From: Octopus vulgaris
Lineage: Eukaryota
NCBI GenBank assembly: GCA_951406725.2
Contig: CATOCA020000001.1
Span: forward strand, 11,036,001 to 11,100,000
Direction: 5' to 3'
DNA: 64,000 nucleotides
Part shown: positions 20,996 through 64,000 of the stretch, in pieces
How the letters are laid out: each line of letters opens with the position of its first letter
How positions within the stretch are numbered: position 1 is the first letter of the stretch
Program-made: the position numbers and the translations under genes
Notes under the pieces: model-generated
The model's database searches: none
What the model was told of the DNA's origin: nothing
The model's input: the letters and a program-made list of their open reading frames with translations, nothing else

Positions 20996-22592
20996 TAGTT
21001 TTATTTTTATTTTTATAGCGTGCTTTCACTTCACTACCGAGCGCAGCTCTGTGTGCCTTGGGTATGTGCTGTGATTTGTTGTGATGCTCTGATGGTTATT
21101 GTATGGAAAGTGTTCTGCGTAGGATGTGGGCAGTGCCTAGTAGTGCAATTTTCTGTATGTTATATGTGTTTGTAAGTCCTGGTGTTTTTGTTATGTATTT
21201 GTCTGAATATTTTTTTATCATGCCTAATGCACCTACTATGATAGGAATTGTTTCTGTTTTCAGATTCCACATTCTAGTTACCTCTATTTCCAGGTCTTTG
21301 TATTTTGAGAGTTTCTCCATTTCTTTTAGAGACACGTTGTCATCTGCCGGTATTGATACATCAATTAAAAAGCATTTTTTTTCTTCATGATCTCTGACAA
21401 CTATATCTGGTCTGTTGGCCTTAATTTCTCTATCTGTGTGTATCGGCATATCCCAGAGTATGGTTGCTTTCTCGTTTTCTGTGACCTTTTCTGGTGTGTG
21501 CCTATACCATCTTTTTTCTGTTGTTATTCCATAATGTTGGCATAGCTTCCAATGTATGTAGGTTCCAACTCTGTCATGTCTGTGAATATATTCCTTCTTA
21601 GCCAGGACTGGGCAGCTAGAGATAATATGATTTATTGTTTCTTGTCCATCTCCACATATTCTGCAGTTACTTGTAATATTTCTTTTCATTACATGTTTTT
21701 GGTAATTTCTGGTGGGGAGGCTTTGGTCTTGTGCTGCAATTAAAAATCCCTCTGTTTCTGCTTTGAGTCCTGAGCTTCTCAACCATTGCTGGGATTTTTC
21801 TTTGTCTATTTCTTTTGCGTTTAGTTTAGTGCAGTATTTACCATGAAGGGGCTTTTCTTGCCATCGTTTTATCATGGTTCGTTGCTGTTCTGTTTTTAGT
21901 TTGGATTTCATTTGTTTTATAGCTTTTGTTGTTTCTTCATCTTCTTCTTCTTCTTCATGTTTATTAGGTGGTATGATTTCTTTTTTGTATTTGTCAGCTT
22001 CCTTAAATACTGAGAACAGTTTTTTGTTTTGCTCGTGTTTTGCCGCTATCTGGATCAGTTTTCCTTCCTTCTGAAGAAGATATTTTTGCAGTCCTATGGT
22101 GGTTATTTTATAGTAGTTTTCCAGCTGTATAAGGCCTCTACCACCTTCTATACGTTGTATATATAGTCTTTCTATGTCAGATTTTGGGTGATGCATCCTA
22201 GATCCTGTCATTTTTCTTGTTTTCCTATCTATTTTGGTCAGTTCATTTCGTGTCCAGTTAAGGATATTGTAGCTGTAACTTATAACTGGGAGAGCTAAAG
22301 TGTTGATACATATTATCTTGTTTTTAGCATTGAGCTCTGTCTTTAGTATTGATCTAACTCGTCTATAATATTCTTTTTTTATTTTCTCTTTCATTTGTGT
22401 GTGTTGTGTCTTATCTAGTTCATGGATTCCTAAGTATTTGTAAGTTTGGCTTTGGTCTAATTCTTTTATTTCATTGGTTTTATCTAGTGTGATGTTGTTA
22501 CTCTTAACTAGTTTTCCTCTTTTCATGGTTACTTTGGCGCATTTTTCTAATCCAAATTTCCTATCTATTTCTTTGGTAAATCCATGAACTGG
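20992..22592 (-). mobile_element. 5'-truncated R4/Dong-clade LINE (RT end, CCHC finger, restriction-like endonuclease, 3' UTR)
   Basis: Open frame 22592-21096: YKYLGI, RLYIQRIEGGRGL, CRICGDGQETINHIISSC, RPDIVV...IDVSIP...KLSKYKDL, LLGTAHILRRTL; (TAA)n at both junctions. Confidence 0.92.
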
Positions 22593-22623
22593 ATTATTAT
22601 TATTATTATTATTATCATTATTA

Positions 22624-22681
<58 letters not shown>

Positions 22682-22723
22682 CATTATTATTATTATTATT
22701 ATTATTATTACATAAGGCAACAT

Positions 22724-22930
22724 ACTGGCAGAATCTTTGGCATGTCAGGCAAAATGCTTTGTAGTAATTCATCTGTCTTTACATACAGAGTTCAAATTCT
22801 GCTATGGTCAGCTGCCTTTCATCCTTTCAGGGTTGATAAATTAAGTACCAGTGGAACGCTGGGGGTCGATGCAATCAACTACTCCCCTCCCACCAAATTT
22901 CAGGTTTTTGTGCCTTCAGTAGAATGGATT
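22724..22930 (+). mobile_element. Meta-core SINE, diverged
   Basis: gcctttcatcctttcagggttgataaattaagtaccag. Confidence 0.7.
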
Positions 22931-25990: not shown

Positions 25991-28900
25991 CGGACGTGCT
26001 GTCACTTCGGCTCCTAAGGTAATCGCTTATTTTGACTATTTATACCCCATATTTTGTGTACATTTTTGTAAATAAGGTGTGTAAGGCACCCAACTTTCGT
26101 TTGAGTGCTTTTCCAAGGGAGGAACTTGCCCCTAGGGACAGTTTCAACCCTATTAATTTGTGTAATTTTCTTCTCGACATTAAAAAATGTCGAGAAATTT
26201 TATTGTAGAACGCTGGTCGCGTTCTTTTATGGACCAGCATTTTCCTAGTCTGGAAACGCTAGGAGAAAAAAAGAACTCATGCACGCAAAGTGCAAACCTG
26301 AATGACGTGGTAGTGAACGTTGCAACCACTTGCGGTAACAGCCCTGTCACCACCACCACCACCACCACTAACAACAACAACAACAACAACGAGACTACTA
26401 CTGCTACCACCACCACCTCCACCACAACCACCACTACCACCACGACCAACATAAATGATAAAAATGAAACTCACGCGAATACTATTAACAAAAACAACAA
26501 CAAGAACAATAATAAATATGAAATAAATATCTTACTATCTAATAGTGAAGATGTTAATATAAAAGAATCAACAACACCAGTAAATTTCGCTGACACTCTG
26601 CGTCAGAAAAGGCAATAGTAACATTTACAAATGAAGAGCTAATAGAAACGAGAGCTCTCTTTACAACCCGTGGGCGGATTTAGTGCTGCATACACCTCAA
26701 CACATAAAGGAACAAATAAAAAATAAGACAATTATATATAAAATTATAAGAAAAAACAAAAAGCTAAATGAACAGATTACAAAAACGGATATAGAAAAAT
26801 GTTTAAAAAGCATAATGAAAAAAAAAGAATATATAAACTGGGGTCCCCAGTTTAACACAGTTGTGGTCCGCTTCCCTAACCAGGAAATGGCAAAACCTCA
26901 CTCTACGAGAGTCTTTGGAAAATGATGATATCAAAATGGTACCTTATTTCAAAGGCCAGAGAGTGAGTAGAATTACTATTAAAAATGTACCCCCCGAGAT
27001 CCCGAACAAATGGATAACAGGGGCAATCTGTTACCATTTGAAAAAGATCAATATTTTAGAAACAGCCGTGTACCTAAACGACAATTGGGGTGGAAAAACA
27101 GTAGTAGTGACCATCCAGATTGAGGGTGCCTCTATCGAGAGCCTACCCGATAGGATCCACCTAGAAAATGGGCAAAGCCTATATATTGTGGCAGAAGGCA
27201 AGAAGCCTAGATGCTACAACTGTGGCAGCCAAGTGCGCTCTAGCACAGAAAAAACAAGAAAGAACAAATCAGAAAACAAATAAAAAACCCTTGTTGCCAA
27301 CACCAACACCAACACACTCAATTATGGAACAATGCCAAGAAGAAAAACAACAAACCAGCAAACAAACCCCAACAACATCACCAAGAAAAGAAACAGTACC
27401 AACAAAATCACCAAGAAAAGAAACAGTACCAACAAAATCACCGTTGACGACGCAACCAATTTATCATGCTGAACCAAAAGATAGACCAACACCAACACCC
27501 AGGACGACAATTAAAAAGACAGAAATCAGTGACGAGAAGACAAATTCTACCCCTAACATCATAACAACACAAACACCGCACAAAACATCAACAATTTCTA
27601 CAAGCATACATAGTAACGCAAATGCCTTGCCTTTACCCCCTTCTGATACGTCGGACGACGAAAGTTCGACGGAACGGCAAATAGCCACAGGGGGTAAAAG
27701 GAAAAGATCAAAAAAGCCCACCAAACAAGGAAGTAAAGCAGGGAGATATTTAACTCCGGACAGCATCCCCCTAGACAATCAACAAATCAATGAACCCGCA
27801 AAACCATACACACAACTAACTGCAATAGACACAGACAATAAAAAATTAATGGATTACATTGCATCCAACACGGACATCTGTGAAGATGACTTTAAGACAA
27901 ACAATCATCCGCGCACCACACCACCGAAGCACATAAAAATTGTACACATAACACAAACACAACACCATACACTGAAAACAATATTTCCAAATGCGGTAGG
28001 CGGGTTTCAACGTTACCTCTCCAAAAAACTATACAAACACCTCATCAAAGACACTACAAAAGAAGAAGAAAAAAATGAAACTTTCGAAATGAGTAAGTGA
28101 CCTTCCCTCTTGCCTCTTGTCTCTTCCAATGTTTGTGTGTGAAACACAATTTTCGTAAACGTCAATTATGCTTAAATTAGGTTGTGTGAATGAGCGTGGC
28201 TTGGCGTCGGCTTGGAAGCAAGGTTACCTTCTAAACGACATCAAGTCACTGAACGTGGAAATAGTAGCTATCAGTGAAACCAGACTCAGCAAGTCGCGGG
28301 CCCTCGCGTCCATGTTTGGCGATCAATTTGACATTTATTTTTCTCCCTGTCTGCCGAACATGGGTGGTGGAGGTACCGCGGTGCTTTTTCGAAAGAGTCT
28401 AAATGTAAAAGTAAGAGCAATATTCCTAGACCCGGAGGGTAGGCTGGTTGTCTTGGACGTGGATGGCAGAAATGGGTGTGCATTCCGTCTGATGGCAGTT
28501 TATGCACCGTCCTTAACGGGTCGGGCGGATTTCTTCAGACGTCTAGAGGTTTTCCTGGGTACGTCTAGACCTTTACTGTGAGTAGGGGATTGGAACGCTA
28601 CCTTGGACACGCATCTAGATTATGTGGGAATGGATAGGAATAGAAGGGGGTGTAAGAGCCTCAAAGACCTACTCAGACGTTTCCATTTGTCTGACAGGTT
28701 CCGACTCGACAATCCGAACGTACCAACGTGGACTTGGACAAACCGCGTCGGATCGTCGAGATCTTATCTAGATAGAATTCTATGCAGGACAGCGGATAGG
28801 GATAGCGTAGGATGTCCACAATTTAAAATTGTCAGCTACACAGATCACAAATTTGTGACGTGTACGCTCGACTTAGATAAGACACATAGACAGGGTCCCG

Positions 28901-30470
28901 GTTACTGGAAACTGAACACGTCGCTCTTAGCGCGACAGGTTTACAGGAACCGGATTAGCGAGTTAATTAAGAGGGCGCTGACGGGAGCCGTCGTTAACAA
29001 TCGCTGGTGGTTCGCCCTGAAAATGGCAATGAAATCGGAATCAATTAGGTTTAGCAAGGAATTAGCGATAGATCGAAACAGAGTAGAGGGAGACCTGGTT
29101 AAGAAACTAGAAGACGCACTTACCACTGGCAGCGCAACCAACGTGTTGGCTGCGAGGATGGCCCTCGACCAACACCTCAACACCAAGCACGAAGGTTGCG
29201 TCGTCAGAGATAAAATGCGTGCCTTAAGGAACGAAGGGATCGAGGCTGCGCGAGAGGCCCGGGTAGCGGAGGCGCAGCGTGGCAACAGAGCCACCATTCG
29301 GTCTCTAATAGATCAACAGGGATGCAGTTTACTCGAACCCGAAAGGATGTGAGGCCTTTCAGCAGCACTTTGCTCGACTGTTTGGTGCGAGTGGTGGGTC
29401 GGAACGCGGGATGGATTTCAGTGCCTACCTGACCGACCCGCCGCGGCTCTCGGCAAGAGAAGCGAAGTGTTGTGAAAGTCCCATCACAGCCGCTGACGTG
29501 CGGGATGCGATGGCGGGCTGCGCGAGGGATAAGTCGCTTGGATTGGATGGTATACCCTACGAGCTGTATAGTCAAATGCCAGACTTGTTTGACGACCTCT
29601 TGGCATCAGTCTGCTGCAACTGGCAACAAAACGGGAGAATTCCCGGTTTCGTGAGCCGAGGTGCAGTGACGTTGCTGAAGAAAGACCCAAACAAGGGGAA
29701 TTTTATAGATAATTTCAGGCCCATCACTCTGCTCAACGCAGATTTGAAAATTTTGGCCAAAGTAATAGCCGAGAGGTTGGCGCTTGTGATTGGTAAACTG
29801 GTCGACAGGGCGCAAACATGCGCCGTACCGGGCAGAACCATACATGACAACCTCCATCTGATGCGCTACATTTTGGACAGGGTAGTTAAGGATCCTGGCA
29901 TAGGTGGGGCGCTGATAAATTTGGATCAGTCTAAAGCATTCGATAGGGTCGACCATCGGTACTTGGCGGCCGTCCTCAGGGCGGCTGGCTTCGGTCCCGT
30001 CTTCCGCGGTTGGATCGCTGCCTTGTATAGCGGCATCCGATCGGTGATTCGGGTGAACGGTCACCTGTCGAAACCGTTTGACATCACGTGTTCGGTCCGT
30101 CAGGGGTGTCCCCTGTAGGCGCTTCTGTATGTATTGACTCTCGAGCCGCTACTGCGAAAGCTGGCGACACCGAGGGGCATCCCACGGGAACTGGGTTGCG
30201 GGACGAGCGTGTCGGCACATGCGGACGATGTCACCGTCATAGTGTCGAGCGACAAACACATCCGGATGATAGGCGAGACATTAAGAAAATACGAAACGGT
30301 GAGGGGAGCGAAGATTAACCCGGAAAAGTCAGTGGGTTTGCTACTCGGCACCTGGAGAAGCAAACCTATGCCGTCCGACTGCGGCTCAGTAGTGGGACGC
30401 TGGACGGACGGACCGGTTAAATTGCTCGGGGTCTGGTTCAGTCCGGACCTCCAAATGGATAAGAACATCA
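25991..30470 (+). mobile_element. Tx1/L1-clade LINE with probable intact 5' end, ORF1 and ORF2 (APE endonuclease + RT); 3'-truncated and disabled
   Basis: ORF1 pieces 26187-28100 with partial knuckle KPRCYNCGSQ; ORF2 from 28168: MLKLGCVNERGL, AISETR, AVYAP, SYLDRI, YTDH, GPGYWKLN, LDQSKAFDRVDH, SVRQGCPL, HADD; stops and frameshifts. Confidence 0.92.
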
Positions 30471-30471
30471 A

Positions 30472-30912
30472 GTGTATGTGACTAACGAATGGAGATTGTT
30501 TAAAGACTCGAGTAAGGTTAGCCTCGAAGCTGTGTTGTTACATAATGGTAATGAAAAACCTTCCATTCCTGTGGGTCATGCTATCGGTATGGAAGAAACT
30601 TATGAATCGATGGAACTCATTCTGAAAGGAGTTAATTACTCAGTTCATAAGTGAAATATTTCTGGTGATTTAAAGATGATTTACCTCATCCTAGGACTGC
30701 AGCTGGAATACATCAAAAATATGCACTTCTTGTGTGTTTGGAATAGTCGTGATGACAGCAACCATTACACTGTAAAAGACTGCTCTAAAAGAGATCTGCG
30801 CATAATTGGTCGCTACAATGTGCAGCATGTGCCGCTGGTAAACCCAGAAAAAAATCTTCCTTCCACCCCTTCACATCAAAATCGCCTTCATGAAAAACTT
30901 TGTAAAAGCAAC
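30472..30912 (+). mobile_element. Chapaev3-type (CMC) DNA transposase fragment
   Basis: EWRLFKDSSKVSLEAVLLHNGNEKPSIPVGH, GDLKMI..LGLQ...FLCVWNSRD, PPLHIK-like...MKNFVKA. Confidence 0.7.
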
Positions 30913-48197: not shown

Positions 48198-48407
48198 CTT
48201 ATCTAATATACTTAAAGGTTCAACCTCGGAATGAAACCTCTTCGTCTTCGCAGCCAGGTGCAGACAATTGTTGCCTTTATTATTGACAACATTTACGTCT
48301 GCACCTTTTGCTATCAACTGGTGCACCATTCCGAGGTGGCCAATAGAGACAGCTAACAGCAATGGTGTCACTTTCTGCTGGTTCTTGATGTCAAGCTGAA
48401 CAGAATC
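48198..48407 (-). CDS. ANK-RING-DD gene exon (210 bp, phase 0-0), ankyrin repeats
   Basis: caaAG|GATTCT...GATAAG|GTAAGT; DSVQLDIKNQQKVTPLLLAVSIGHLGMVHQLIAKGADVNVVNNKGNNCLHLAAK...ILDK. Confidence 0.9.
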
Positions 48408-49269
48408 CTTTGTAGAGTTAAAAATAGAAAATGAAAATCTGCATGAAAATTCGGGTAGATACCAATGTGTTATTACTGTCTTCTACTGGGTACTTGACCA
48501 AACTAATCATACACACTTGATGTCTGTCAGCAAAGAGAACCTTCGTAAAGTACCTCCATAACTTCCTTTGAGTGTATATTAGAGACATAATCTAAGTTGT
48601 CATATTATAGTCAGGAATAAAGATTCATGACTATAGTAAGTTTTAGGAGAACTGAACCAGGGTGAAGACATGATTAACGGATCAAGTGTAGTAAAGAAGA
48701 ATTATTCGCTTAATGTTTACTTTTGATGTTGCTATATTAATAAGGGGTTCATAAAACTGCTGAGGCAGTTAGTGTCCACTCCCGTAAAATTAATGTACAC
48801 CCGCGTACGCACACACACATCATTTCGACCCTCTTGTATTGGTTCTTTTGAGTGTGGGATTCTGTACAACGGGTTCCGTTGCATCCTCTGGTGCAGAATG
48901 CATCACCTCTGATGTCTTGTTCTAAAGAAAATACTTTGCTAATTGTTCTCGGTTTCGTTTCGCAGGTTGTTCTGTGCAATGCTATAATCCAAAAACCTAC
49001 AATATTTAGAGTTAAAATCTAAGGATGATGAACGTGTAAGATGATAGTAAGTTTTTCACAATCCGCATAAGTTTGTAAACTTTGCTATATTGAAGATTGA
49101 TATGCAGTAAAAAAGTTACTTTCTACTTTATGGTTGGCAACTGGAGTTGCTGTATCTGCCACTACAGGTTGACCTAACGAATAGCTAGCAGATTACCACT
49201 CGTTTGTGTAATTACTACTTTCGAGGTGCTGGAAGCTATATATACATACATACATATATATATATATAT

Positions 49270-49570: not shown

Positions 49571-50640
49571 TATAATGGCAGCTAAGGCTGGGAACCCTTC
49601 TTGATGCAAACCCCAAAGCAGAGTGTACTGAATGCTCTGGCACCATCCTTGAGGAGGTTCTCATGTCCTAACCAAAACAAGCCTAAGTTTCCTCTCTACC
49701 CTATGGGATCTCCATTCATTCATATTCCATTTTTCGTGACATCAGTCCTAGAGACATTGCCTCCCCCCAGGCTCCTCGTTTGTCTAAATTTGTTCTGGAT
49801 AACCTGATCAACAGTGGGTAGAAGGGATGGTAAATGCGGACGATGGGTCTAGGATGCGAGGCAAGGAAGCAGTAATGCTTCTAGAAAAGTAATGTGTGTA
49901 TGTCAAAATAGGGATGATAGTGGCAGGTGCTTGTTTTGTATGTTAAAGGGAGAGTAACAAGTGGTGGGTTACTAGAAGAATGATGGTCAGCGGGGAAGTG
50001 AGCGACCGGGGAGAGAGGGAGATACAATCACAATCAGAGTAATAGAAAGGGAGAGGAGGAGGTAGTTATGTTAGCATGTAAGGGAAGCATGGGTGACGGA
50101 TGTCAATGGAAGTGTATGTATATACATAAACACGATTGTGTATATATTTATATACACAAACACACATATAAAGGACATTTGTATAGTTATAGTAACCAGT
50201 AGAAAACAGTAAGAGTAGGTTTAATTACAAGAAAACAAATTAATTAGTTATAAACATAGAAACCATTCTTCATATTAGTGACATCAACACATTCCTCACT
50301 TACCAAATCTCAGCAATTCTTCGTTTTATATTTTTCTACGATGGAGAGGAATAATTGCTTGTTTGCTTCGTGTTATTCAACCAGTTATTCTATTGCACAG
50401 CATTCTATATCAGTTATAATAAGGTGTGTTTCATGTACTGGATATAGATATATTGTAATCGACGTAATGCTAGCTATATGCAGTAACTGGTCATTTTTGC
50501 CAGTTGCGTGACAGGGAGAGAAAATAAAAAAGGTTTAGTGGGTAGCGATCTATCATGGCGATCTATCATATATATATATTTATATAGCGGCGTACGTACA
50601 CTTTGTTATCTCCCTCTCTCTATCTATCTATCTCTATCTA

Positions 50641-50677
<37 letters not shown>

Positions 50678-50880
50678 TGACCGCGTGAGTACCGTTGGCG
50701 TTATTTTTTCCCTCTGTCTTCCCTTCTCTGGATCTTTCCTTCTCCTATGTTTCCGACGAAGAGCTCCGCTCGAAACGTTAAACCCTCCTTCTTTCTTCTT
50801 TCCTGAGCGTCCAATAATACTATATTGTTCCACGTCCTTGCGTTGTTGTATTTTATCTTTGTGTTTTCATTTTTGGATTA
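50678..50880 (+). mobile_element. Small repeat (family D, related to C) with a minimal hammerhead at 50749-50783
   Basis: gttt-CCGACGA-agagc tcc gctc-GAAA-cg-TT-aaac, with palindromic aacgtt stem III. Confidence 0.6.
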
Positions 50881-50921
50881 CGCATATATATTACGCATAT
50901 ATTACGCATATATATTTATAT

Positions 50922-51305
50922 ATAATAGAAATATTAAAATAACTAAGTCTCTCTAAAAGAGAACAGCGGCAGCGTTCCCGGAAAATAATAGTTATCGCCA
51001 TACTAATATGGCATTCTTATAAAAATAAGAAAAAAGCTGTCCGCTTATTAGCTCCATGAGGCCATCGCCTTAAGTTAGCTATTTGATACACAAACTGTAT
51101 CCATATAACCTTCGAACAAGGGAGGGCAGTCGCTCCACACTACTTGACCGGCAGCTACAGACGCGTTTCGGGGTATTGCCCCTTTTCAATGCAGCGTAGC
51201 CAGCCAGTAGGTGTCGCTGTTCTCTTTTAGAGAGACTTAGTTATTTTAATATTTCTATTATTGAAAACAAGTGGATGTATTCCACCGAAACTAGGTAAAT
51301 AAAAG
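50922..51305 (-). mobile_element. Family B non-coding Penelope-like/retrozyme element with an inverted arm; hammerhead at 51148-51203
   Basis: Minus gctgca-TTGAAAA-gggg caata cccc-GAAA-cgcg-TC-tgtagc; 50923-50968 inverted against 51215-51261; homologous to 54657-55000. Confidence 0.75.
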
Positions 51306-51881
51306 TGACAATTAAAAGGTAAAGATGGAAGTAAATTATAAAGATAATAATATAATATAATGTATATAACAGGCAATACACATATATACATACACAGATA
51401 TATATATATATATATATACACATACAGACATATACTAAATGTTCTACTATATTAGATTGTAAATCGAAAGATGCGTCCTTCAATGTCACTATATATATAT
51501 ATACATGCTTACACATGAAATATTAGAGAAAAACCCACCTTCTATCGAATCAAAATGAACAATCAAATTACACCATCTTGAAAATTGCATATCATAGGAA
51601 GGTTAAAATTAGAATGACAATTGGCAAGTAAAGATCAAGTAAATTGCAAAAACAATATAATGTATATAACAGGTAACATGCACACACACACACACACACC
51701 TATATATATAAATATATATACACACACATATATTAAATGTTCTACTATATCATATTGTAAATCGAAAAATTTGTCCTTCAATGTATGTTGAGTAAGTTTC
51801 AGCCATTTAATTTGGGGGAGAACTTAGCTATGAAATGTTTTTTCCGTATTCCTCCTGAAGGAGGTGTCATTCTTCGGAATA

Positions 51882-51882
<1 letters not shown>
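51305..51882 (-). mobile_element. Probable Penelope-like element 3' end (GIY-YIG C-terminus remnant) followed by two diverged tandem repeats
   Basis: Minus [27 protein letters not shown] (one frameshift) at 51799-51883; 51305-51486 duplicated at 51615-51784. Confidence 0.45.
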
Positions 51883-51979
<97 letters not shown>

Positions 51980-52035
51980 ATTGATTGATAAATAGATAGA
52001 TAGATAGACAGAGAGAGAGAGATAGAGAGAGAGAC

Positions 52036-52077
<42 letters not shown>

Positions 52078-52081
52078 GGAC

Positions 52082-52148
<67 letters not shown>

Positions 52149-52169
52149 AAGAAATAGATAGACACACAC

Positions 52170-52537
52170 ATCCATATATACATGGTTGTAGTGTAAGAAG
52201 CTTTTTTCCCAGCCATACACTGTTCCACGTTGAATCCCTCTGCATGGAAACTCAGGCAAGTATATTCTACCCTTACCTAGGGCTGAACAAAATCTTGTTA
52301 GTGGATTTGGTAAATGAAAACTGAAAGAAGCTTCATAACAGGTGTGTGTCTATGTGTGTGCCTATGTATGTGTGTGTGAGTGTTTGTGTGTGTGTGTGTG
52401 TGTGTAGTGGTTCAACAAAGAGGCTGAAAGGGTAAGTGATATGCTTAAAATAAAAAAGTACTGGGATCGATACAGTTGACTAAAAGTTCAAGGTGATGCC
52501 CCGACATGTCCGCAGTCAAATGCCTAAAACATTTAAA

Positions 52538-52540
<3 letters not shown>
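52170..52540 (+). mobile_element. Diverged tRNA-derived SINE (15190 family)
   Basis: gtggatttggtaaatgaaaactgaaagaagc...ccgcagtcaaatg. Confidence 0.6.
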
Positions 52541-52591
<51 letters not shown>

Positions 52592-52863
52592 GATATCTGT
52601 TATATTTTGGTTCATCTCATAATGACCTTGTTTCCTTTGACCATTAAAGATATCATTATCAGTGGTGGTGGTCAGTTGGACTGTCAACACCACTAATATC
52701 AACATCAACATGATCAATATACAATTCCTCCACAAACACAGGGCTTTTGTAGTACATGTGATTAAATCCATCCCCATTATTTTACTGGTACATTGGTAAT
52801 ATTTATATTATACAGATCAATAAAATGCTGGAGAGTGTATATAATATATATTTATTAACTAAC

Positions 52864-52900
52864 CTTGTTCAGCATCACAGACACCACTTTATATTTTCGC
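52864..52900 (-). CDS. ANK-RING-DD gene micro-exon (37 bp, phase 2-0)
   Basis: ttactttcAG|GCGAAAA...AACAAG|GTTAGT; (G)RKYKVVSVMLNK completes the second ankyrin helix and restores phase between its neighbours. Confidence 0.8.
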
Positions 52901-53855
52901 CTGAAAGTAATGGATAAGAAAAGAAAAACATGAAAAAACCAAACATCACACAGCTTGAGATAATAGTTATTAGGTCATTAAAGAAAACAAATGTAATTAG
53001 GTCATAAGAACTTAATTACAGCAATTATTACACACATACTCACACACACATATATATTTATTCAATACACACTCTACAGAGTAGAACAATGATATATACA
53101 CACCTGAGTAAACCCAGAAATGTAAAGACAGGAAAGCATTCTGACAGCTTTTATAAACATGAAATTTAGGAAGGAAAGAAGGGCTACAGGTAATCATATG
53201 AACACCAGTACATGACTGGTATTGTATTTTATCAACCTTGCAAAGATGGAAGGAGAAGTTGACCTTGGCAGGATTTGAACTCTGAACGTAAAGAGTCGTA
53301 AATAAAATAACACAATTTATTTTCTCTAAAAGTAATAAGAAACAAGAACTGGAGAAAAGAAGGAAGACATTTTATTAAAGGAACCCCTGGGTATTACTGG
53401 TACAGATTATATTGACCCCAGAGTGATAGTAAATATTCTGGTAGGATTTGAACATGGAACATAAAAGAGACAAATGTAAATACTGTAAGGGGATGATTCT
53501 GTATTTAGCCCAGGGTCGGAGTGAAATAGGGGAACTACAAAGGAGAGAGAGTGAGGAAGAAAGAGAGAGAGAGAGAAAGTAGTTCTAGATGGGATGAAAG
53601 GAAGAAGAGAGAGGATTTGAACCTGTGACGTTGAGGTAATGGAGAACGAGATGAAGTAAAGAGTCCAGTCAGGCAACAACAATAACAATTATGGTGATGA
53701 TTAATTAATAAAGTAGATTACAGTGCGAAAGAGAATAGAAAGACAATGACCCCATGGTGGGATTATGACATGAATGACTGAATGAAAAAGAAACAAACAT
53801 TATTGAAAACGTAAAAGAAACAGATATGGATATTCCAGATCCAATGGGGACTTAC

Positions 53856-54010
53856 CCCTTAACTGCCTCATGCAGTGGTGTGTCTCCATTGTTGCCCACC
53901 ACATTGCCATCGATGCCATTGTGACCCAACAACAGCTCGACAATGTGCAAGTGTCCCCGCGAACAGGCCAAGTGCAGCGGTGTCTGACCATTTACATCTC
54001 GAGGATTAAC
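53856..54010 (-). CDS. ANK-RING-DD gene exon (155 bp, phase 0-2), ankyrin repeats
   Basis: tttttcAG|GTTAAT...AAGGG|GTAAGT; [51 protein letters not shown]. Confidence 0.92.
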
Positions 54011-54369
54011 CTGAAAAAGAAAAGAATAAAAACATTAAAAATGGTGTCTGAAAGGGGAGTCGGGTGGTGAAGAATTAAAAGAAAAACTCACAGAAAAAGA
54101 GAAGAGAATGAATGACATTAATTAAACAGGTGGAATGATTGGGGTGGGGAGTAGATAATATAGATTTCTATTGTATATACACACACGCGTATACACACAT
54201 ACATATGTACATATAAATATATTTATATACACACACACAAACACACGCATATAGGATGAATAACTCAATAAATAAACACATAGAGCAGCAAAATGTGTGT
54301 GTGTGTATATATGTGTGTGTGTGTATATATGTGTGCGTGTTTGCGTGTGTTCATAGTTACATTTTTTGT

Positions 54370-54590
54370 TTTATTCTTTCATTTGTTTCAGTCATGTGAC
54401 TGTGGCCATGGTGGAGCACTGTCGTTAGTCGAGCAAATCGACCCCAGGAAGCCTAGTACTTATTTTATCGGTTTCTTTTGCAGAACAGCTAGGTTACGGG
54501 ACGTAAACATCGGTTGTCAAGCGATGTTGGGGGACAAACACAGGCACACAAACATACGCACGTACACACAGACACACATAACACACACAC
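54370..54590 (-). mobile_element. SINE 3' half (15190 family)
   Basis: ttgtttcagtcatgtgactgtggccatg...gtcgagcaaatcgacccc. Confidence 0.7.
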
Positions 54591-54597
54591 ACACATA

Positions 54598-54656
<59 letters not shown>

Positions 54657-54660
<4 letters not shown>

Positions 54661-54996
54661 CTACCGTAACTAGGTAAATAAAGCCTTCGAACTGGGACGA
54701 TCAGTGGCGACACCTGCGGGTCTGACTACGCTGCATTGATAAGGGACAACAACCCTGAAACATGTCTGTAGCTTCGGACTAGCAGGATGAAGCGGCTGAC
54801 CTCCTTTGTTCGAAGGTTTAATAATGGACGCAGGTGTGTGTCAATAGCTAGCTTGAGACGATGGCCTCACGGAGCTAATCAGCGACAGATTTGTTCTTAA
54901 ATTTATAAGAATGCCATATTAGTATGGCGATAACTATTATTTTCCAGTAACGCTGCCGTAATCTCCTTTAGAGAGACTTAGTAATTTTAATAGTTC

Positions 54997-55000
<4 letters not shown>
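54657..55000 (+). mobile_element. Family B element with a hammerhead at 54721-54778, in (TA)n
   Basis: gctgca-TTGATAA-ggg acaacaa ccct-GAAA-catg-TC-tgtagc; homologous to 50922-51305. Confidence 0.75.
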
Positions 55001-55058
<58 letters not shown>

Positions 55059-55258
55059 CAATAATAATTCTCTAAAAGGGATATAGACAGTAACTGCTCG
55101 ATAACATAAGGGACTAAAGCCATCTGAATATGGCTAGGGACAGGCAGGGTGGTGGGGGTGTTACTGTTGCATTTAGCCCCAGGCGAACATCGACGTCACC
55201 AGAAAGGCTCGACACCGTCACGGTGCCCTAAACCTGCAAAGGGAGGTAATTCCCCGAT

Positions 55259-55332
55259 GAAGCGGAAACCACACACGGACCATGGTTTCAAGGTGTATTG
55301 CCTATCATCGGCGTGTGGTAGGCCTCCGCTTC
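55259..55332 (-). ncRNA. Type I hammerhead ribozyme (family A, minus copy)
   Basis: Reverse complement of 55720-55793; predicted cleavage between 55278 and 55277. Confidence 0.75.
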
Positions 55333-55719
55333 CTCGACGAATTCTCACTCTGCAGGATTTTCTTATATAGATTTTCAAGCAAAATACATTTGCTGATTTC
55401 GAAAATCTGTTCGAAAGCAATAATAATTCTCTAAAAGGGATATTACCTCCCTTTGCAGGTTTAGGGCACCGTGACGGTGTCGAGCCTTTCTGGTGACGTC
55501 GATGTTCACCTGGGGCTAAATGCAACAGTAACACCCCCACCACCCTGCCCTGTCCCTAGCCATATTCAGATGGCTTTAGTCCCTTATGTTATCGAGCAGT
55601 TACTGTCTATATCCCTTTTAGAGAATTATTATTGCTTTCGAACAGATTTTCGAAATCAGCAAATGTATTTTGCTTGAAAATCTATATAAGAAAATCCTGC
55701 AGAGTGAGAATTCGTCGAG

Positions 55720-55793
55720 GAAGCGGAGGCCTACCACACGCCGATGATAGGCAATACACCTTGAAACCATGGTCCGTGTGTGGTTTCCGCTTC
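55720..55793 (+). ncRNA. Type I hammerhead ribozyme (family A, copy 1)
   Basis: gaagcgga..accacacg-CCGATGA-tagg caataca cctt-GAAA-ccatgg-TC-cgtgtgtggt.tccgcttc; predicted cleavage after C55774 (GUC). Confidence 0.78.
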
Positions 55794-56079
55794 ATCGGGG
55801 AATTACCTCCCTTTGCAGGTTTAGGGCACCGTGACGGTGTCGAGCCTTTCTGGTGACGTCGATGTTCGCCTGGGGCTAAATGCAACAGTAACACCCCCAC
55901 CACCCTGCCCTGTCCCTAGCCATATTCAGATGGCTTTAGTCCCTTATGTTATCGAGCAGTTACTGTCTATATCCCTTTTAGAGAATTATTATTGCTTTCG
56001 AACAGATTTTCGAAATCAGCAAATGTATTTTGCTTGAAAATCTATATAAGAAAATCCTGCAGAGTGAGAATTCGTCGAG

Positions 56080-56153
56080 GAAGCGGAGGCCTACCACACG
56101 CCGATGATAGGCAATACACCTTGAAACCATGGTCCGTGTGTGGTTTCCGCTTC
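56080..56153 (+). ncRNA. Type I hammerhead ribozyme (family A, copy 2)
   Basis: Identical to 55720-55793 shifted by 360; predicted cleavage after C56134. Confidence 0.78.
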
Positions 56154-56308
56154 ATCGGGGAATTACCTCCCTTTGCAGGTTTAGGGCACCGTGACGGTGT
56201 CGAGCCTTTCTGGTGACGTCGATGTTCGCCTGGGGCTAAATGCAACAGTAACACCCCCACCACCCTGCCCTGTCCCTAGCCATATTCAGATGGCTTTAGT
56301 CCCTTATG

Positions 56309-56346
<38 letters not shown>

Positions 56347-57062
56347 GTATATATATGTGTATATATATATAATGCAAGATGTGTGTGTGTGTGCGTGTGA
56401 ACGTTTTTGTAATTTATGCACATCCACAAATTAGCACGCATGTCGCTCAAATTTTAGGAGGACATTCGTTACACCCTAGCTGTATTTTCGCCAAATTATT
56501 TTCCCCCGAGACTCCCCGAATAGCGGTAAATAATTTTGCGCCAAAACTTCTAAATTTTTAAGATGGCGAAAGCTACCATTGTTTACAAAGCAAACATGAG
56601 TTCAGTCCCCTCCTAGCGACGGTGTAAAGAGAGGGAGGGAGAGGGAGAGGGAGAGAGAGATATTTTTATAATTTCGTCTTTTTACTCGCAATAACAGACA
56701 GACAGGTGTTGTTATGTATGTTTGTATGTGTGAATGGCTTCAGTCACGCATACACACACGCGAGCATGTATGCGTAAAAGGCACATATATGCAATGTTTG
56801 TGTGTGTGTGTGTTGTGCGTATATATATATACGAGCAACATAAACGATATTCTCCGTTTCTCCACAACTAATTTCCAAATTAGCTGAATCCGTTGTTCTA
56901 ATCATAGCGATATATAGCTGGTCGTGCGTGAACATGGGAGAGAGCAGAGGTGACCAGAGCAAAAGACCTACGTGTTGACTGTAGACACGCTCCTTCGCAA
57001 ACGATCAGCTATTATTTTGTAAACAATGTTGCGAAACTGTTCATGTTTTCGAAAGGAGAGGG

Positions 57063-57539
57063 GTCAACCTAAAGCGTTTGACCCGGTCATAAAAATAAAC
57101 AAAAAAATAGTAATATGTGTAAAACAACTTCCTCTAAACGAATCTGACCAAAAAAATGTGCGCTCGCGAAAGGAGGGTGGGGGAGAGGTCTATGGCCTTT
57201 TCTTTGATAATATCTTTCTTGTTTATTTAAATTCAGTACAATGCACTCTTGCCTTGTACCAACCATTTCTCTTTGTGTGGGTGTGTGTGTGTGTGTGTGT
57301 GTGTGTGTTGTTGATAACCGTTTAGAACAAGTTGTTTTACACCTATTACACTATTTTTTTGTTTTTTGCCCGAGTCAGACACGTAACATTCACGATGTGA
57401 ATTTTCCGAGGCCTCTCCCCCACTCCCCTTTCGCGAGCGCGCATTTTTGGGGTCATATTCGTTTAGAGGAATTTGTTTTACACCTATTACACTATTTTTT
57501 GTTTGTTTTTATGACCGGGTCAAGCATTTTAGTTTGACC
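57063..57539. mobile_element. MITE/foldback element with ~130-bp imperfect terminal inverted repeats
   Basis: 57063-57190 (ggtcaacctaaagcgtttgacccggtcataaaaa...ggggagagg) inverted against 57409-57539; no ORF. Confidence 0.7.
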
Positions 57540-58030
57540 AGGAGAGGTATGATTTCACATCTCTGCGGGAGAAGGTAGGCTTCTTTATTCCTGTTGCAAA
57601 ACTTACTTCCGGGTGTGCCAAATTTGCTTCAATTGATGGTATTACTCGGGTAGGATGTGGTGGTGGGACAGTGGCAGGGGCAAAGGCGTTCACAAGCATG
57701 TATACAATAGGTGTATGTACGTATATGTTTGTGTGTGTGTGTATTTTGCCCATATATATAAACTTAGTTGTGATCTGAACATAACCGCTTCTCACACAGA
57801 GGATTAGGAGCGCTTTTGGGAATTCTACTTTCCTTGCAGGAAGGGTTCTCAATCCATGGGCAAAATGGGGTTACATAAAATAAAACAATCGATGAGTGTA
57901 AAAAATCGAGAAACCGATTTCCTATGGAACCATGTGGTTTGTAAGCAAGCTACTAACCACACAGCCAATATTTTCATTATAAAATAGGAAACACCACAAA
58001 GTTATGGGGAAAAAATAAGGGTCTCATGAA

Positions 58031-58077
<47 letters not shown>

Positions 58078-58224
58078 AATATGTATATGTGTGTTTGTGT
58101 GTGTATATATCTATGTATATATGTATATGTATACTCATATATACGTTTATATACATATATATATATATGTGTGTGTGTATATATATATTGTTATATATAT
58201 ATGTGTATATACATATGTATATAT

Positions 58225-58274
<50 letters not shown>

Positions 58275-58550
58275 AATATATAATATCTTATAGGCATGTA
58301 TACATTATATATACGATTATATATACGTACCTATATAAGTGTGCCCCAAACGTCGGGAGTTCAGCAAAAATTCACAAGAGTATCTCTTGTTTCCTCGTAA
58401 TTTTACAAAAAGTGAATAAATTGTTAGGAAAGTATCGAGAAAAACCTTTCGGAGAAGATTAGGATTATTTCGGAATATAATATGAATGAAGAGAAACACT
58501 AACATATGCATACCACAATTTACATTATATATACATCCATACATTTTATT

Positions 58551-58606
<56 letters not shown>

Positions 58607-58687
58607 TATATATATATATATATATATAAATACATATATATATATATATATATATATTGTTATATTTGCACAACCAAATATTTAAAC

Positions 58688-58722
<35 letters not shown>

Positions 58723-58745
58723 ATATATATATATATATATATGTA

Positions 58746-58777
<32 letters not shown>

Positions 58778-58823
58778 ACAGACCCACACATACACACACA
58801 CGCACATATATATAATCACTAAC

Positions 58824-58971
58824 CTCAACATCGGTCTGTTTTAATAGGAATGCCACGTCATCTGTCCAGTCATTCGCTGCACCAAAATGGAGAGGAGTCC
58901 TGCCGGAATCGTTCTTCCCATTTATCTCGCTGCCCCGAGATAGTAAGAGTTCCACGACTTCAAGATTATGA
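58824..58971 (-). CDS. ANK-RING-DD gene exon (148 bp, phase 2-0), ankyrin repeats
   Basis: tactctcAG|TCATAAT...GTTGAG|GTTAGT; (G)HNLEVVELLLSRGSEINGKNDSGRTPLHFGAANDWTDDVAFLLKQTDVE. Confidence 0.92.
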
Positions 58972-59031
58972 CTGAGAGTAAAAGATAGAAACATTGACTA
59001 ATTTACATTAAACACCTAATTGTTTTGGCTT

Positions 59032-60145
59032 TCATCATCATCATCATCATCATCACCATCATTATCAGCAGCACTATTTTCATCGCTATCATCCTGATCG
59101 ACATCATCGCCATCATCATCATTGCCACCACCTCCATCATTAACGTAATCATCATCATCGCCATCATCACCATTATCATCATCGCCTTCATCATCATCAT
59201 TTTCATCATCTCCATCATCATCATCACCCTCATTGACAACACCATCATCATCATCATCATCATCGTTCATATCAACCATCATCTTGAACATCTCCAAAAT
59301 CATCATAATCATCATCATCATTCATCGGCATCATCATAGTCATCACCATCATAAACACCAACATCACTATCGTCACCATCATCGTCATCGTCATCACTAT
59401 CATCGTCATCATAATCATCATCATCATCATTATCATCATCGAGATCATCATTGCCATCATCATCATTATCATCATCATAATCATGATCATCATCGACTTC
59501 ATCGTCATCATTATCGCCTCCATCATCATCATCATCACCACCATCATCAGCAAGATCGACATCATCCTCATCATCATCGTCATTAACATAATCATCATCA
59601 TCGTCATGATCATCATAATAATATCATCGTAATCATCATCATCATCATAATAATATCATCGTAATCATCATCATCATCATCATCATCAATCAATCATCAT
59701 CATCACAGTCATCATGATCATCATCATCATCATCCACATCATCATAATCATCATAAAAATCATCGTCATAATCGTCAACATCACCATCATCATCTTCATA
59801 GTCATCATCATTCTCATCATCACCCACATCATCATCATAATCATTTTCATCATCATCCACATCATCATGATCATCATCATCATCATCATCGTAATCATTG
59901 TAATCATCATCGTCAGCATCATCATCATCATCATCATCATCGTTTTCATCATCATCCACATCATCCAAATCATCATCATCGTAATTATCATCGTCATCAG
60001 CATGATCATGGTCGTATTCATCATCATCATTATAATCATTATCCTCATCATCATCTTCATCATCATGGTCGTATTCATCATCATCATTATAATCATTATC
60101 CTCATCACCATCTTCATCATCTACAATGTCATCATATTCAATATT

Positions 60146-60183
<38 letters not shown>

Positions 60184-60210
60184 AATCATCATCATCATCA
60201 TCATCATCAT

Positions 60211-60247
<37 letters not shown>

Positions 60248-60905
60248 TTCGTCATCAAAATCATCACCATCATCATAATCATTATCACCATCATCATAAT
60301 CATCATCACCATCACCATCATCAGCCTCATCATCGTCGTTATCATCATGATCATCATAATCATCATCATCATCATCATAATCACCATCATCAGCCTCATC
60401 ATGATCGTCATCATCATCGTCATCATCGTCATCAACATAATGATCTTCAGTATAATCATCATCATAATTATCATCTTTTATCATCATCGTCATCATCATC
60501 ATCAACATCATCTTAATCAACATTGTTGTTATCCTCATCATGATCGTCATCATCATCATCGTCGTTATCATTATCATCATTATAATCATCCTCCTCATCA
60601 TAATCGTCATCATAATCATCATAAAAATCATCCCCCATCATCATCATCGTCATCATCCCCCTCATTGCCACCACCATCGTCTTCATCATCATTCGTCGCC
60701 ACTATAATCATAATCATCATCATCAGCGTCATCATAATAATCATCCTCATCATCACTACCATCATCATCATCATCATGATCGACCTCATCATCACCATCA
60801 TCGTCTCCATCATCATCATCATCATCAACAACACCATCATCATGATCGACATCACCAATACCGTCCTCGTCATCATCATCGCCGTTATCATCATCATCAT
60901 CATCG
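59032..60905. repeat. ~1.9 kb degenerate (CAT)n microsatellite in an intron
   Basis: Directly visible. Confidence 0.95.
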
Positions 60906-61109
60906 GGATTGTTATGATTGAATAATGACTAATGAATTGGATCGATGACTAAAGAGAAGCTTGTTGTTGTTGTTGTTTGCTAGTCTGCTGTTGTGCCGTT
61001 GTCCCACTGCAACTACTCTGGCCTCTTTGGATATTGAACCTGTGTCTGCAATTGCAACAAATTTACAAACAAAAACACATCTGCAGATTTTACTTGATTC
61101 TCAACTTAC

Positions 61110-61267
61110 CCAAACAGAGCCCAATGTAAAGCTGTCCAACCCCATTTGTCTTTCGCTCCCACCTCGCCTCCTGCTTCTAGCAATATTTCGACGAATCTTC
61201 TATCGGCGCCCCCTTCACAGGTCCACATTAAAGGAGTTCGTCCAAATCCATCAATAGGTTTATTAAT
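61110..61267 (-). CDS. ANK-RING-DD gene, most 5' exon found (158 bp, phase 0-2), ankyrin repeats
   Basis: cattacAG|ATTAAT...TTTGG|GTAAGT; INKPIDGFGRTPLMWTCEGGADRRFVEILLEAGGEVGAKDKWGWTALHWALF; start codon not found. Confidence 0.9.
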
Positions 61268-61304
61268 CTGTAATGAAGAAAGTGAGGACATGTGAAATAG
61301 AGAA

Positions 61305-63152
61305 ATTCCATTTTCTCTCTCTCTCTCTCTCTTTTCTCTCTTTGTCTCTCACTCTCTTTCTCGTTTTCTTTCCTCTTTCTCTCCTTCTTTCTCTCTCTAT
61401 CTCCCTCTTTCATTTCTTTCCTTCTCTTTCGTTTCTCACCTTCTCTTTCTTTCCCTTTTTCTTTACGCTCTTTCTTTCTCTTTCTCTCTCCGTGTCTCTT
61501 TTACTCTCTCTCTCTTTCTTTTCTCTCTTTTCCCATTTTCCATTTCTCTCTTTCTCTCTCTCATTTCCTTCCTCTTTCTCTTTTTCTTTTTTCTCTTATC
61601 TTTCTCTTTCTCTATTTTTCAATTTCTCTCTTTCTCTCTCCGTATCTCTCTCTCTTTCATTTCTTTCTCTTTCTATTCTTACATTCTTTATCTCTATTTC
61701 TTTCTCTGTTTCTCTCTTTTTCTTTCTCTTTCTCTCTTTTTCCATTTCTCTTTCTTTCTCTCTCTCTCTATTACCTTTTTTCTTTCTTTCTCTCTCTGTC
61801 TCCTTCACTATTCCTTTTCTCTCTTTCACCCAACCTTTTTCTTTTTCGTCTCTCTTTCTCTTTTACTTTTATCTCTTTCTCTCTCTTTCTCTCTGTGCTT
61901 CTCTTTGCCTTTTCTCTCTTTCACCCTCTTTCTCTTTTACTTGTCTCTCTTTTTTGATGTCCTTTCTCTTTTCCTTTTCTCTCTCTCTCTTCTCTTTCTT
62001 CTTCTCTCACTCTCTCACAATTTCTTTTCTATTTTTCTCTCTCTGTCTCTTACTCTTTGTTCTCTCTTTCTCTCTCTTTCCTTCCGTTTTTCTCTCTCTC
62101 TCTTTTCTATCTTTCTTTCTCTCTCTCTATTTCCCATTCTCTTTTCTCTCCAATATTCCCCTCTTTCCCTCTCTGTCTCTTCTCTCTTTCTCTCCCTCTC
62201 TTATTCTTATCTCTCACTTTCTTTTTCCCCTTTTCCCTCATTCTTTCTCCCGCTTTCTTTTTCTCTTCTCTCCTTCTCCCCCGCTCTTTTACCTTTCTCT
62301 CCTGCTTTACTTTTCTCTCTTTTTCTATTCTCTCTTCTTTATCTCTCTCCTTTTCTTTTCCCTCTTTCTCTCTCCCTTATTCGCTTCCTTTTATCTCTCT
62401 CTTTCTTTCCTCTCTTCCTCTTTCTCTCTGTTATCTCTTTTCTCTGGTTATTTTTCTCTTCTCTCTTCCTCCCGCTCTCTCACTTTCCTTTTCTCTCTTC
62501 CTCCCTCTCCCTCTCTTTCTTTCTGTCTCTTTGTCCTTTCCTTTTTCTCTTCTTCCCTCTTTTCCTTTTCTCCCTTTAAGGGACTTACTTTTTTCTATTC
62601 TCTCCTCTTTTGCCTTCTCCCTTTCTTTTCTCTCTTTCTCCCTCTTTCTTTTCTCTCATTCTCTTTATTCCTTTTACATCTCTTTTATCCCTCTCTTTCT
62701 CATTTCTCTCTATTTCAGTGTTTGTTTTTCCTCTTTCTTCCTCTCTCTCTCTCCCATTTTCTCTCTTTATTTCTCTCAGTACCTTTTTCTTCTCTTATCT
62801 TCCATTTTCTCTCTTCCTCTCCCTCTTTCTCTTTTTCTATTCTCGTTCTCTCCCTCTCTGCTTCTTTTCTCTCTCTTTCTATTTTCTGGTTTTCCTTCTC
62901 CCTATCTCTCGTTTTCTTTTCCTTTTCTCTCTTTTTCTCTCTGTTTCCTTTCTCTCTCTCTCTCTCTATCTTTTTCTTTTCTCTCTTTCGCTCGTTTTCT
63001 TTGTCTGTTCTCTCTTACTCTCTCATTTCATCATTGTCTTTCTCTCTTTTTTTTTTTTCTCTTTCTGTGTCTCTTTTCTTTCTTCTTCTCACTCTTTTGT
63101 TTTCTCTCTTCCTTTCTCTATTTCTCGTTTTTTTCTCTTTCTTTCTCTCTTC
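61305..63152. repeat. ~1.85 kb CT-rich polypyrimidine low-complexity tract
   Basis: Directly visible. Confidence 0.95.
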
Positions 63153-63335
63153 TACTTGTTTCAGTCATGAGACTGCGGCCATGCTGGGGCTCCTCCTTGA
63201 TTTTGTCTTTTATGTGTGGTACCTTTTCTGTCTAATTAGCAGCAACCTATAGATCTCTTTTGCTTAAGGGATAAGTAACAGGGATGCAAATACACCAACA
63301 CCGGTTATCAGATAGCAGTTGGGGGACACACACTA
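63153..63335 (-). mobile_element. SINE 3' part (15190 family)
   Basis: tacttgtttcagtcatgagactgcggccatgctgg. Confidence 0.6.
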
Positions 63336-63450
63336 ACATAGATACACATGCACACACACACAATCTCCACTCCAAAATACAGACACATCTTGTCAGTATA
63401 CACACACACACACACACTCACTCACACACACACACACTCACATACACACA

Positions 63451-63508
<58 letters not shown>

Positions 63509-63579
63509 CGAGTTAATAACACGTGTAAGGATGTGTTTTATCTATTCACCGAATTGAATGGAGACTTGTCCAGGAGAAA

Positions 63580-64000
63580 CTAATGTCGTCAGACGTTATT
63601 CCTCGTTCATTGGGTGCTTCGGCCCTGAACCGTAACACCCTACTCTTGGTGGGTCAACAGAGGTTGCCAATTTACTGCTCCTCAACTCCTCATGCCTTCC
63701 AGCGTTAATCTTCTCTTACACCAAAGCCAGCAAAAGGCTCTTTCAGTTGCCTCTCCCATCATGCGCACAGCCACCATTCCCTCCTTACCTCACATTCCAG
63801 TTGCTGTAAAAATCCTCCATGCCGACTGGGCAAGGAATCCCCTACAGCCAACCTCCACTAGGAAAATCCATACCTGCCATCCCTTCTCCCTGCAATCCTG
63901 CAGATGTTTCTTATATCTGTCACACTTCTGTTCATGGGCCTCGTTACCACCGGCTCCCCACGTGACTTTTCGTTCAATTATGATAATTTTCTGGGCCTTT
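63580..64000 (-). mobile_element. HERO-type RLE LINE 3' end, degraded, running off the window
   Basis: KIIIIERKVTWG...EAHEQKCDRY...CREKGWQVWIFLVEVGCRGFLAQSAW...ERAFCWLW. Confidence 0.75.

Follow-up and report, generated by a model that had tools for sequence, protein, structure and literature searches.

Non-LTR retrozymes have been demonstrated as RNA circles in coral, mussel and axolotl, and their mobilization by Penelope-type elements (PLEs) has been proposed (PMC7229834; de la Peña 2020). The repeats reported there measure 350 to 390 bp in mussel and 330 or 350 bp in axolotl (PMC7229834). That PLEs copy the circles of animal retrozymes has been suggested since 2020 from co-occurrence and similarity. 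PLEs leave a recognizable mark at their insertion sites: an inverted, 5'-truncated copy and a one-sided tail of 30 to 40 bp are described as hallmarks (Craig 2021; Arkhipova 2013). As described by Frangieh 2024 (PMC11167929), the PLE protein nicks AT-rich DNA on both strands and initiates at two internal positions of the RNA, which set the limits of the tail.

We analyzed a stretch of 64,000 nucleotides from Octopus vulgaris (assembly GCA_951406725.2, contig CATOCA020000001.1, forward-strand positions 11,036,001 to 11,100,000; hereafter the window, in whose positions features are given). An initial annotation had singled out a tandem array of 360-bp hammerhead units as a candidate retrozyme. 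The reading that we favor, with a probability of about 0.68, is that the array is a young non-coding hammerhead retrozyme, inserted in (TA)n, likely by a PLE RT/GIY-YIG protein acting in trans on a circular RNA monomer. That the 360-bp family is a non-LTR retrozyme we hold to be very probable; that it is mobilized in a PLE-type manner, only slightly less so.

Structure of the array

The array consists of two arms built from one 360-bp unit, whose position 1 we set at 55775. The direct arm (plus strand, 55442 to 56312) is 871 nt or 2.42 units long, begins at unit position 28 and ends at unit positions 174 to 178, called site A below. The inverted arm (minus strand, 55057 to 55443) is 387 nt or 1.07 units long, begins at unit position 195 and ends at unit positions 221 to 222, site B; hence it bears the tail, the ~44 nt between the two 3' sites (minus strand, 55057 to 55100), which is conserved in four related families. 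The arms meet head to head at 55442-55443 and overlap by 2 nt. These lengths agree with the ~2.4 plus-strand and ~1.07 inverted units of 360-bp period originally counted, as does TRF (period 360, 2.4 copies, 99% matches). The units had also been described as nearly identical: compared with the unit, the plus arm differs by one substitution (55508) and the inverted arm by one 1-nt deletion. The (TA)n flanks noted at the outset lie at 55002 to 55057 and 56310 to 56371 and form the left and right halves of the target microsatellite.

The unit has a GC content of 47%. Its longest stop-free frame spans ~98 codons and contains no Met, in keeping with the earlier statement that there is no credible ORF. 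We ruled out a coding role for the unit on the absence of a Met-led ORF together with indels between families. A TATA-like word (plus strand, 55683 to 55690), which lies ~30 nt before stem I and has a counterpart in related families, is a candidate promoter element.

The hammerhead motif and its predicted fold

Every full unit contains a type I hammerhead motif. The first plus unit is partial and lacks it, and the whole array holds three complete motifs. Hammerhead 1 (plus strand, 55720 to 55794; predicted cut after C17 at 55774) comprises all the parts initially assigned to it: stem I, the CCGAUGA core (55741 to 55747), stem II (55748 to 55762), GAAA (55763 to 55766), the stem III palindrome (55766 to 55773) and the GUC site. 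Hammerhead 2 (plus strand, 56080 to 56154) has its predicted cut after C17 at 56134. The third motif lies in the inverted arm (minus strand, 55258 to 55332; C17 at 55278), and its own strand holds no partner. Stem II is AGG/CCU closed by U.U, and stem III is the 8-nt palindrome ACCAUGGU, followed by GUC. The motif matches the type I core (C3 U4 G5 A6 N7 G8 A9, G12 A13 A14, A15.1-U16.1, H17) at all positions except one, U4C. This substitution, a natural variant, is reported to lower hammerhead activity in vitro considerably, yet to be tolerated in a viroid (Perreault 2011).

An Rfam search of 50000 to 64000 at E<=1 returned no hammerhead, only microsatellite-driven miRNA and snoRNA matches. Hence, it is the motif and covariation that support the hammerhead assignment. 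Among nine sequences from four families, 95.8% of cells were paired and 4 of 16 pairs showed double changes. The covariation score was reached by 0 of 500 shuffles, although two pair-count measures failed to beat the shuffles and the sequences are related. Stem III is palindromic in all four families through four different sequences, and the relatives' cores have C3-G8, U3.G8 or U3-A8; the U3-A8 covariation is already described from PLEs (Cervera 2014). Separately, rare copies of the 360-bp family (L172, L173, L175, L177 and L179) carry UUGAUGA, UUGACGA or CCGACGA cores, or a variant stem III, ACCUAGGU, that stays palindromic; they are possible intermediates towards the U4C core.

The predicted 360-nt monomer lies between the two predicted cleavage sites (plus strand, 55775 to 56134) and folds in prediction as a rod with a branched head. 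Its fold z-score is -5.7 when linear and -6.4 when circular, with a circular MFE of -116.7 kcal/mol; circular monomers of related families score -4.8 and -4.0. In the fold predicted for the dimer (55712 to 56165), one stem III palindrome pairs with the other (P 0.78-0.9) and strands are exchanged between the two stems I. Relative to the minimum, the active double form is predicted to lie 4.8 kcal/mol higher and the single hammerhead 13.1, and a GCC/GGC hairpin covers the core. Release of the 55775-56134 monomer by dimer cleavage, as originally put forward, is consistent with the modeled double-hammerhead fold, and slow cutting confined to dimers would spare the ring. Might the other polarity also encode a ribozyme? 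We rejected this: the minus-strand CCGAUGA and GAAAC words reflect self-complementarity and lack proper stems, and the fold is weaker (z -3.0).

A recent insertion in a young family

A paralogous site on C31 at 4.92 Mb lacks the array: window positions 53134 to 55057 and 56310 to 57810 are contiguous there through one (TA)n, with a 94-95% match to the window flanks. The array is therefore a recent insertion. In the microsatellite-rich 2.8-Gb genome, a 35-nt core occurs in 812 exact copies, compared with 0 for its reversed control. Exact site-B/TA junctions number 202, and the pattern used misses one haplotype, so there are at least 202 insertions. Across 36 loci, 61,293 aligned bases contained 233 variant events, a divergence below 0.5%. 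The family is young.

Could the array be an artefact of assembly? Inverted repeats beside microsatellites are hard to assemble, and we saw no long read across this locus. Set against this are the clean empty paralogue, rule-bound ends at 55 loci and target-site duplications (TSDs). Contigs of 390 nt spanning the whole unit were also recovered from five of eight public runs, from four studies; these are equally compatible with a ring or a tandem, and with RNA or DNA. We conclude from the empty paralogue and these contigs that, as a family, the array is not an assembly artefact, and for the locus itself we give this explanation a negligible chance.

The array lies in the (TA)n at the 3' end of a member of F5, a distinct and older family of hammerhead repeats (plus strand, 54657 to 55001; ~363-nt period, U3-A8 core UUGAUAA), and this microsatellite was the insertion target. 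A second F5 copy lies at ~50935-51310 on the minus strand. F5 copies are ~90% alike, number 2196 candidates, run into (TA)n at two 3' ends ~61 nt apart and have head-to-head arms. Ankyrin-repeat coding stretches are found on the minus strand at 48201-48482, 53855-54010 and 58830-58997, in a region duplicated at C31:4.92 Mb (L181). Because it lies between such stretches, the array is probably intronic; in a minus-strand pre-mRNA its two arms would form a duplex of ~387 bp. Elsewhere in the window, broken LINE-like RT or endonuclease frames occur at 28159-30481, 3231-5329, 9792-10730 and 21096-22778.

Insertion footprints at 55 loci

We compared 55 loci: 36 of 40 that were scored, and 19 picked by exact core. 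The latter were the 17 remaining chromosome-1 loci (four of them also in the first list, then unanalysed) plus two on chromosome 2. A full unit or core was the ground for choosing loci in both sets, and this favors long arms. At 39 of the 55, an inverted, 5'-truncated arm stands head to head with the direct arm; the other 16 are single-armed. The 5' ends vary, while the 3' ends are fixed at site A (~174-178) or site B (~221-222), ~44 nt apart (tail of 44-46 nt) and half-way round the unit from the ribozyme. Of the 39 two-armed loci, 34 have one A end and one B end (23/26 in the first set, 11/13 in the second); the five exceptions are L021, L026, L040, L155 and L163. Where both ends lie at or near A or B, 34 of 36 pairs are mixed, for which P is ~1e-8 under independent choice. 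Single-armed loci end mostly at A (12/16), with three at B and one elsewhere.

Head-to-head junctions overlap by -2 to +4 nt in 29 of the 34 measured. TSDs of 12-15 bp were found at four of 12 loci examined and arise where the target is not a microsatellite. Arms reach 14.4-14.7 units; of 94 arms, 78 are longer than one unit and 51 longer than two. Short junction inserts aside, the arms of all 55 loci are made of unit sequence, and in no case do they continue into a coding region common to the loci. Sites A and B recur in three families 65-80% identical to the 360-bp unit. We conclude that the inverted arm arose together with the direct arm in one Penelope-type insertion event, a connection that the initial annotation had missed. 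That annotation had also read the non-integer unit counts as RT running around a circular or multimeric template. Reiterative reverse transcription stands, but the fractions themselves come from fixed 3' ends combined with variable 5' truncation.

We also considered run-off at the cleavage site. Three arms start at unit position 2, but no enrichment was seen genome-wide: 5 of 15 matches at that position were true 5' ends, and a control position, its matches unclassified, gave 10. At one locus (L153:2143-2183), the head-to-head junction holds a 39-nt insert similar to a divergent relative of the unit, and a template switch between families is possible. The insert shares no 14-mer with the single F2 locus compared.

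Unit variants and the template

Unit haplotypes are defined by T48A; T291A or G; G288T with or without del277; and A177G+C199T+G251T+T291A. The two arms share a haplotype at 38 of the 39 two-armed loci, whereas permuted arms agree at a mean of 12.4 and a maximum of 21; 12 of the agreements rest on reference alleles, and short arms cover few sites. Where a shared site has a non-reference allele, arms agree at 26 of 27 loci, the miss being a 1-of-2 tie. All eight units of L154, across both arms, carry G251T+T254C, a combination unique to this locus in the assembly; two further loci have T254C but not G251T. A164T is fixed in L156 and also found at one other locus. Repeated copying of one ring is the simplest account of a fixed private variant and concordant arms, though a source array for the L154 variant may lie on the unassembled haplotype.

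Six of the 55 loci (L021, L031, L042, L045, L048 and L150) contain recurring variants that are not fixed. A 5-unit block is repeated in L031, an alternation in L150 would fit a dimer ring, and L021 is a 2-of-3 case. Shared variants are symmetric about the junction in L042 and L048, and in L048 both arms end within 16 nt of the same register. In L045, G4T is restricted to the 3'-terminal unit of both arms. One ring cannot give unfixed recurring variants; hence, a pure monomer-ring model fails for these six loci. We conclude that multimer templates or later duplication also occur.

Related families and a candidate helper

Three further related retrozyme families (L101-L145) have units of 355-360 nt, 65-80% identical, with UUGACAA, UUGACGA and CUGAUGA cores; two gave 109 and 291 pattern matches and one 2605 candidates. 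The hammerhead, the rod fold and both 3' sites are preserved in all three.

We looked for an autonomous PLE sharing the tail or pseudo-LTR (pLTR) in 50 GIY-YIG loci, a subset of the 150 that were scored among 6136 candidates, and found none. Searching the unit, tail and hammerhead against those 50 loci with blastn and nhmmer returned only other retrozyme copies. Among the PLEs is a very young two-ORF family (L084:68-4760), with a 479-aa ORF1 overlapping a 781-aa RT+GIY-YIG frame, a CxxxxCxxC motif before the nuclease, a U3-A8 hammerhead-like motif in its 3' repeat and many intact copies in (TA)n. It has two fixed ends 38 nt apart, used at 16 loci as 12 A, 3 B and 1 both. We regard it as a candidate helper, with which the unit shares no sequence found by blastn or nhmmer. 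A likeness between the two tails (a hairpin, then TATTAT) was faint and not significant, and we set it aside.

A proposed route and its alternatives

In the route that we propose, a tandem array would be transcribed, and in the transcript two hammerheads are predicted to pair through palindromic stem III and excise the 360-nt monomer. By analogy with the coral, mussel and axolotl retrozymes, the monomer would be ligated into a ring. Both target strands would then be primed, presumably by a PLE enzyme: the footprint places one start at A (~175-178) and the other at B (~221-222). Each RT would circle the same ring, from a fraction of a turn to ~15 turns. The two cDNAs would finally join head to head at the variable 5' points seen in the footprint, producing the 12-15-bp duplications visible in non-microsatellite targets. 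Tentatively, and with slightly less than an even chance, we suggest that one PLE complex grips a single RNA ring and primes both strands at sites ~44 nt apart, and that both RTs roll round it. If so, the PLE tail and inverted arm would be products of one priming event, and arrays would be born full length, with variants arising and becoming fixed per RNA ring.

Would linear RNA serve as well? The same family could insert in the same PLE-type manner from a linear multimer, either an uncut read-through of a homogeneous array or linear monomers between which the RT jumps, circles being absent or a side product. Weak cleavage is predicted from U4C and the competing GCC/GGC hairpin, and eight of nine predicted Xenopus dimers are reported not to cleave, one of the nine cleaving (10.64898/2026.07.22.740005), which counts against a ring. 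So does PAc, which is described as inserting in vitro from unprocessed RNA, without hammerhead cleavage (Frangieh 2024, PMC11167929); the terminal G4T of L045 and the nearly coincident arm stops of L048 also suit a linear template. However, the variant fixed in eight units has no source array in the assembly, copying of linear arrays only shortens them while arms here exceed 14 units, and 5' ends showed no excess at the cleavage site. We therefore consider a linear template unlikely. Much less likely still is that a short PLE-type insertion expanded afterwards into a minisatellite through unequal crossing-over and conversion. Local later amplification has been suggested for such arrays (Li et al. 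2026, 10.64898/2026.07.22.740005), and the repeated block of L031 and the symmetric variants of L042 and L048 look like its products. Yet most arms are longer than one unit, and over half longer than two, at <0.5% divergence (a count in which selection favored long arms); both arms of a pair share their haplotype, and the A and B ends are fixed whatever the length.

The units might instead be pLTR stumps of an autonomous PLE, with the hammerhead as a passenger. The tail, inverted arm, TATA-like word and hammerhead are all described as pLTR traits (Craig 2021; Arkhipova 2013). Against this, no arm at the 55 loci is joined to a shared coding region, 360 nt make a complete, self-closing unit, and both the rod fold and a period of 355-360 nt persist in four related families. 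This explanation is largely refuted, and we judge it highly improbable.

The family is young enough to show how it inserts: its priming sites, a different start on each strand and usually one template per insertion. The 360-nt RNA would be a substrate with two predicted starts, which makes the long-proposed copying step testable, and the footprint is relevant to two unexplained features of Penelope insertions, their tail and their inverted arm. The family is also an active source of intronic insertions, which would form long dsRNA in host transcripts.

Comparison with known systems

Several features agree with the endonuclease PLEs (Neptune type, PAc) as described: an inverted, 5'-truncated arm (39/55), a one-sided tail from two fixed ends (34/39), initiation downstream of the hammerhead, an AT-rich or (TA)n target and TSDs of ~10 bp or more. 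Autonomous PLEs encode RT and GIY-YIG in an ORF between pLTRs; in contrast, no ORF lies in or is joined to the octopus unit. The 360-bp family further differs from these PLEs in its closed 360-nt unit, repeated up to ~15 times per arm, its tail of 44-46 nt rather than 30-40 bp, and its full canonical-type hammerhead with extended stem I.

With the metazoan retrozymes of PMC7229834 the family shares non-coding tandem repeats in the 150-450-bp range, here of 360-bp period, lacking ORF or LTR and bounded by (TA)n; GC below 50%; one type I hammerhead per unit; a stable, highly self-paired monomer; dispersed, mobile copies with TSDs of >4 bp; and co-existence with PLEs. ORF-free hammerhead repeats, dispersed insertions, TSDs and a stable monomer thus sustain the retrozyme reading first offered from the window. 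Axolotl HHR_Amex2 resembles it in the U.U at the base of stem II and in dimer-dependent cleavage, which here is predicted (PMC7229834). The U4C core and 8-nt palindromic stem III set the octopus family apart from the retrozymes described there, as do, relative to the passages of that paper compared here, its two arms, two fixed 3' ends and (TA)n targeting. Circles were demonstrated in those animals, whereas here the circle is predicted from sequence.

The vertebrate non-LTR retrozymes described in 10.64898/2026.07.22.740005 are likewise type I hammerheads in tandem arrays with a connection to PLEs. There the link consists of co-occurrence and pLTR homology; here it is an insertion footprint, and we found no homologous pLTR. 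Later local amplification is favored for the vertebrate arrays, whereas the variants here point to amplification at insertion. Our literature search, of incomplete coverage and limited to article texts, returned no paper on cephalopod retrozymes and no tail or inverted-arm footprints in retrozymes. We conclude that the 360-bp family joins the known non-LTR retrozymes and brings unusually direct footprint evidence for the mechanism proposed for them.
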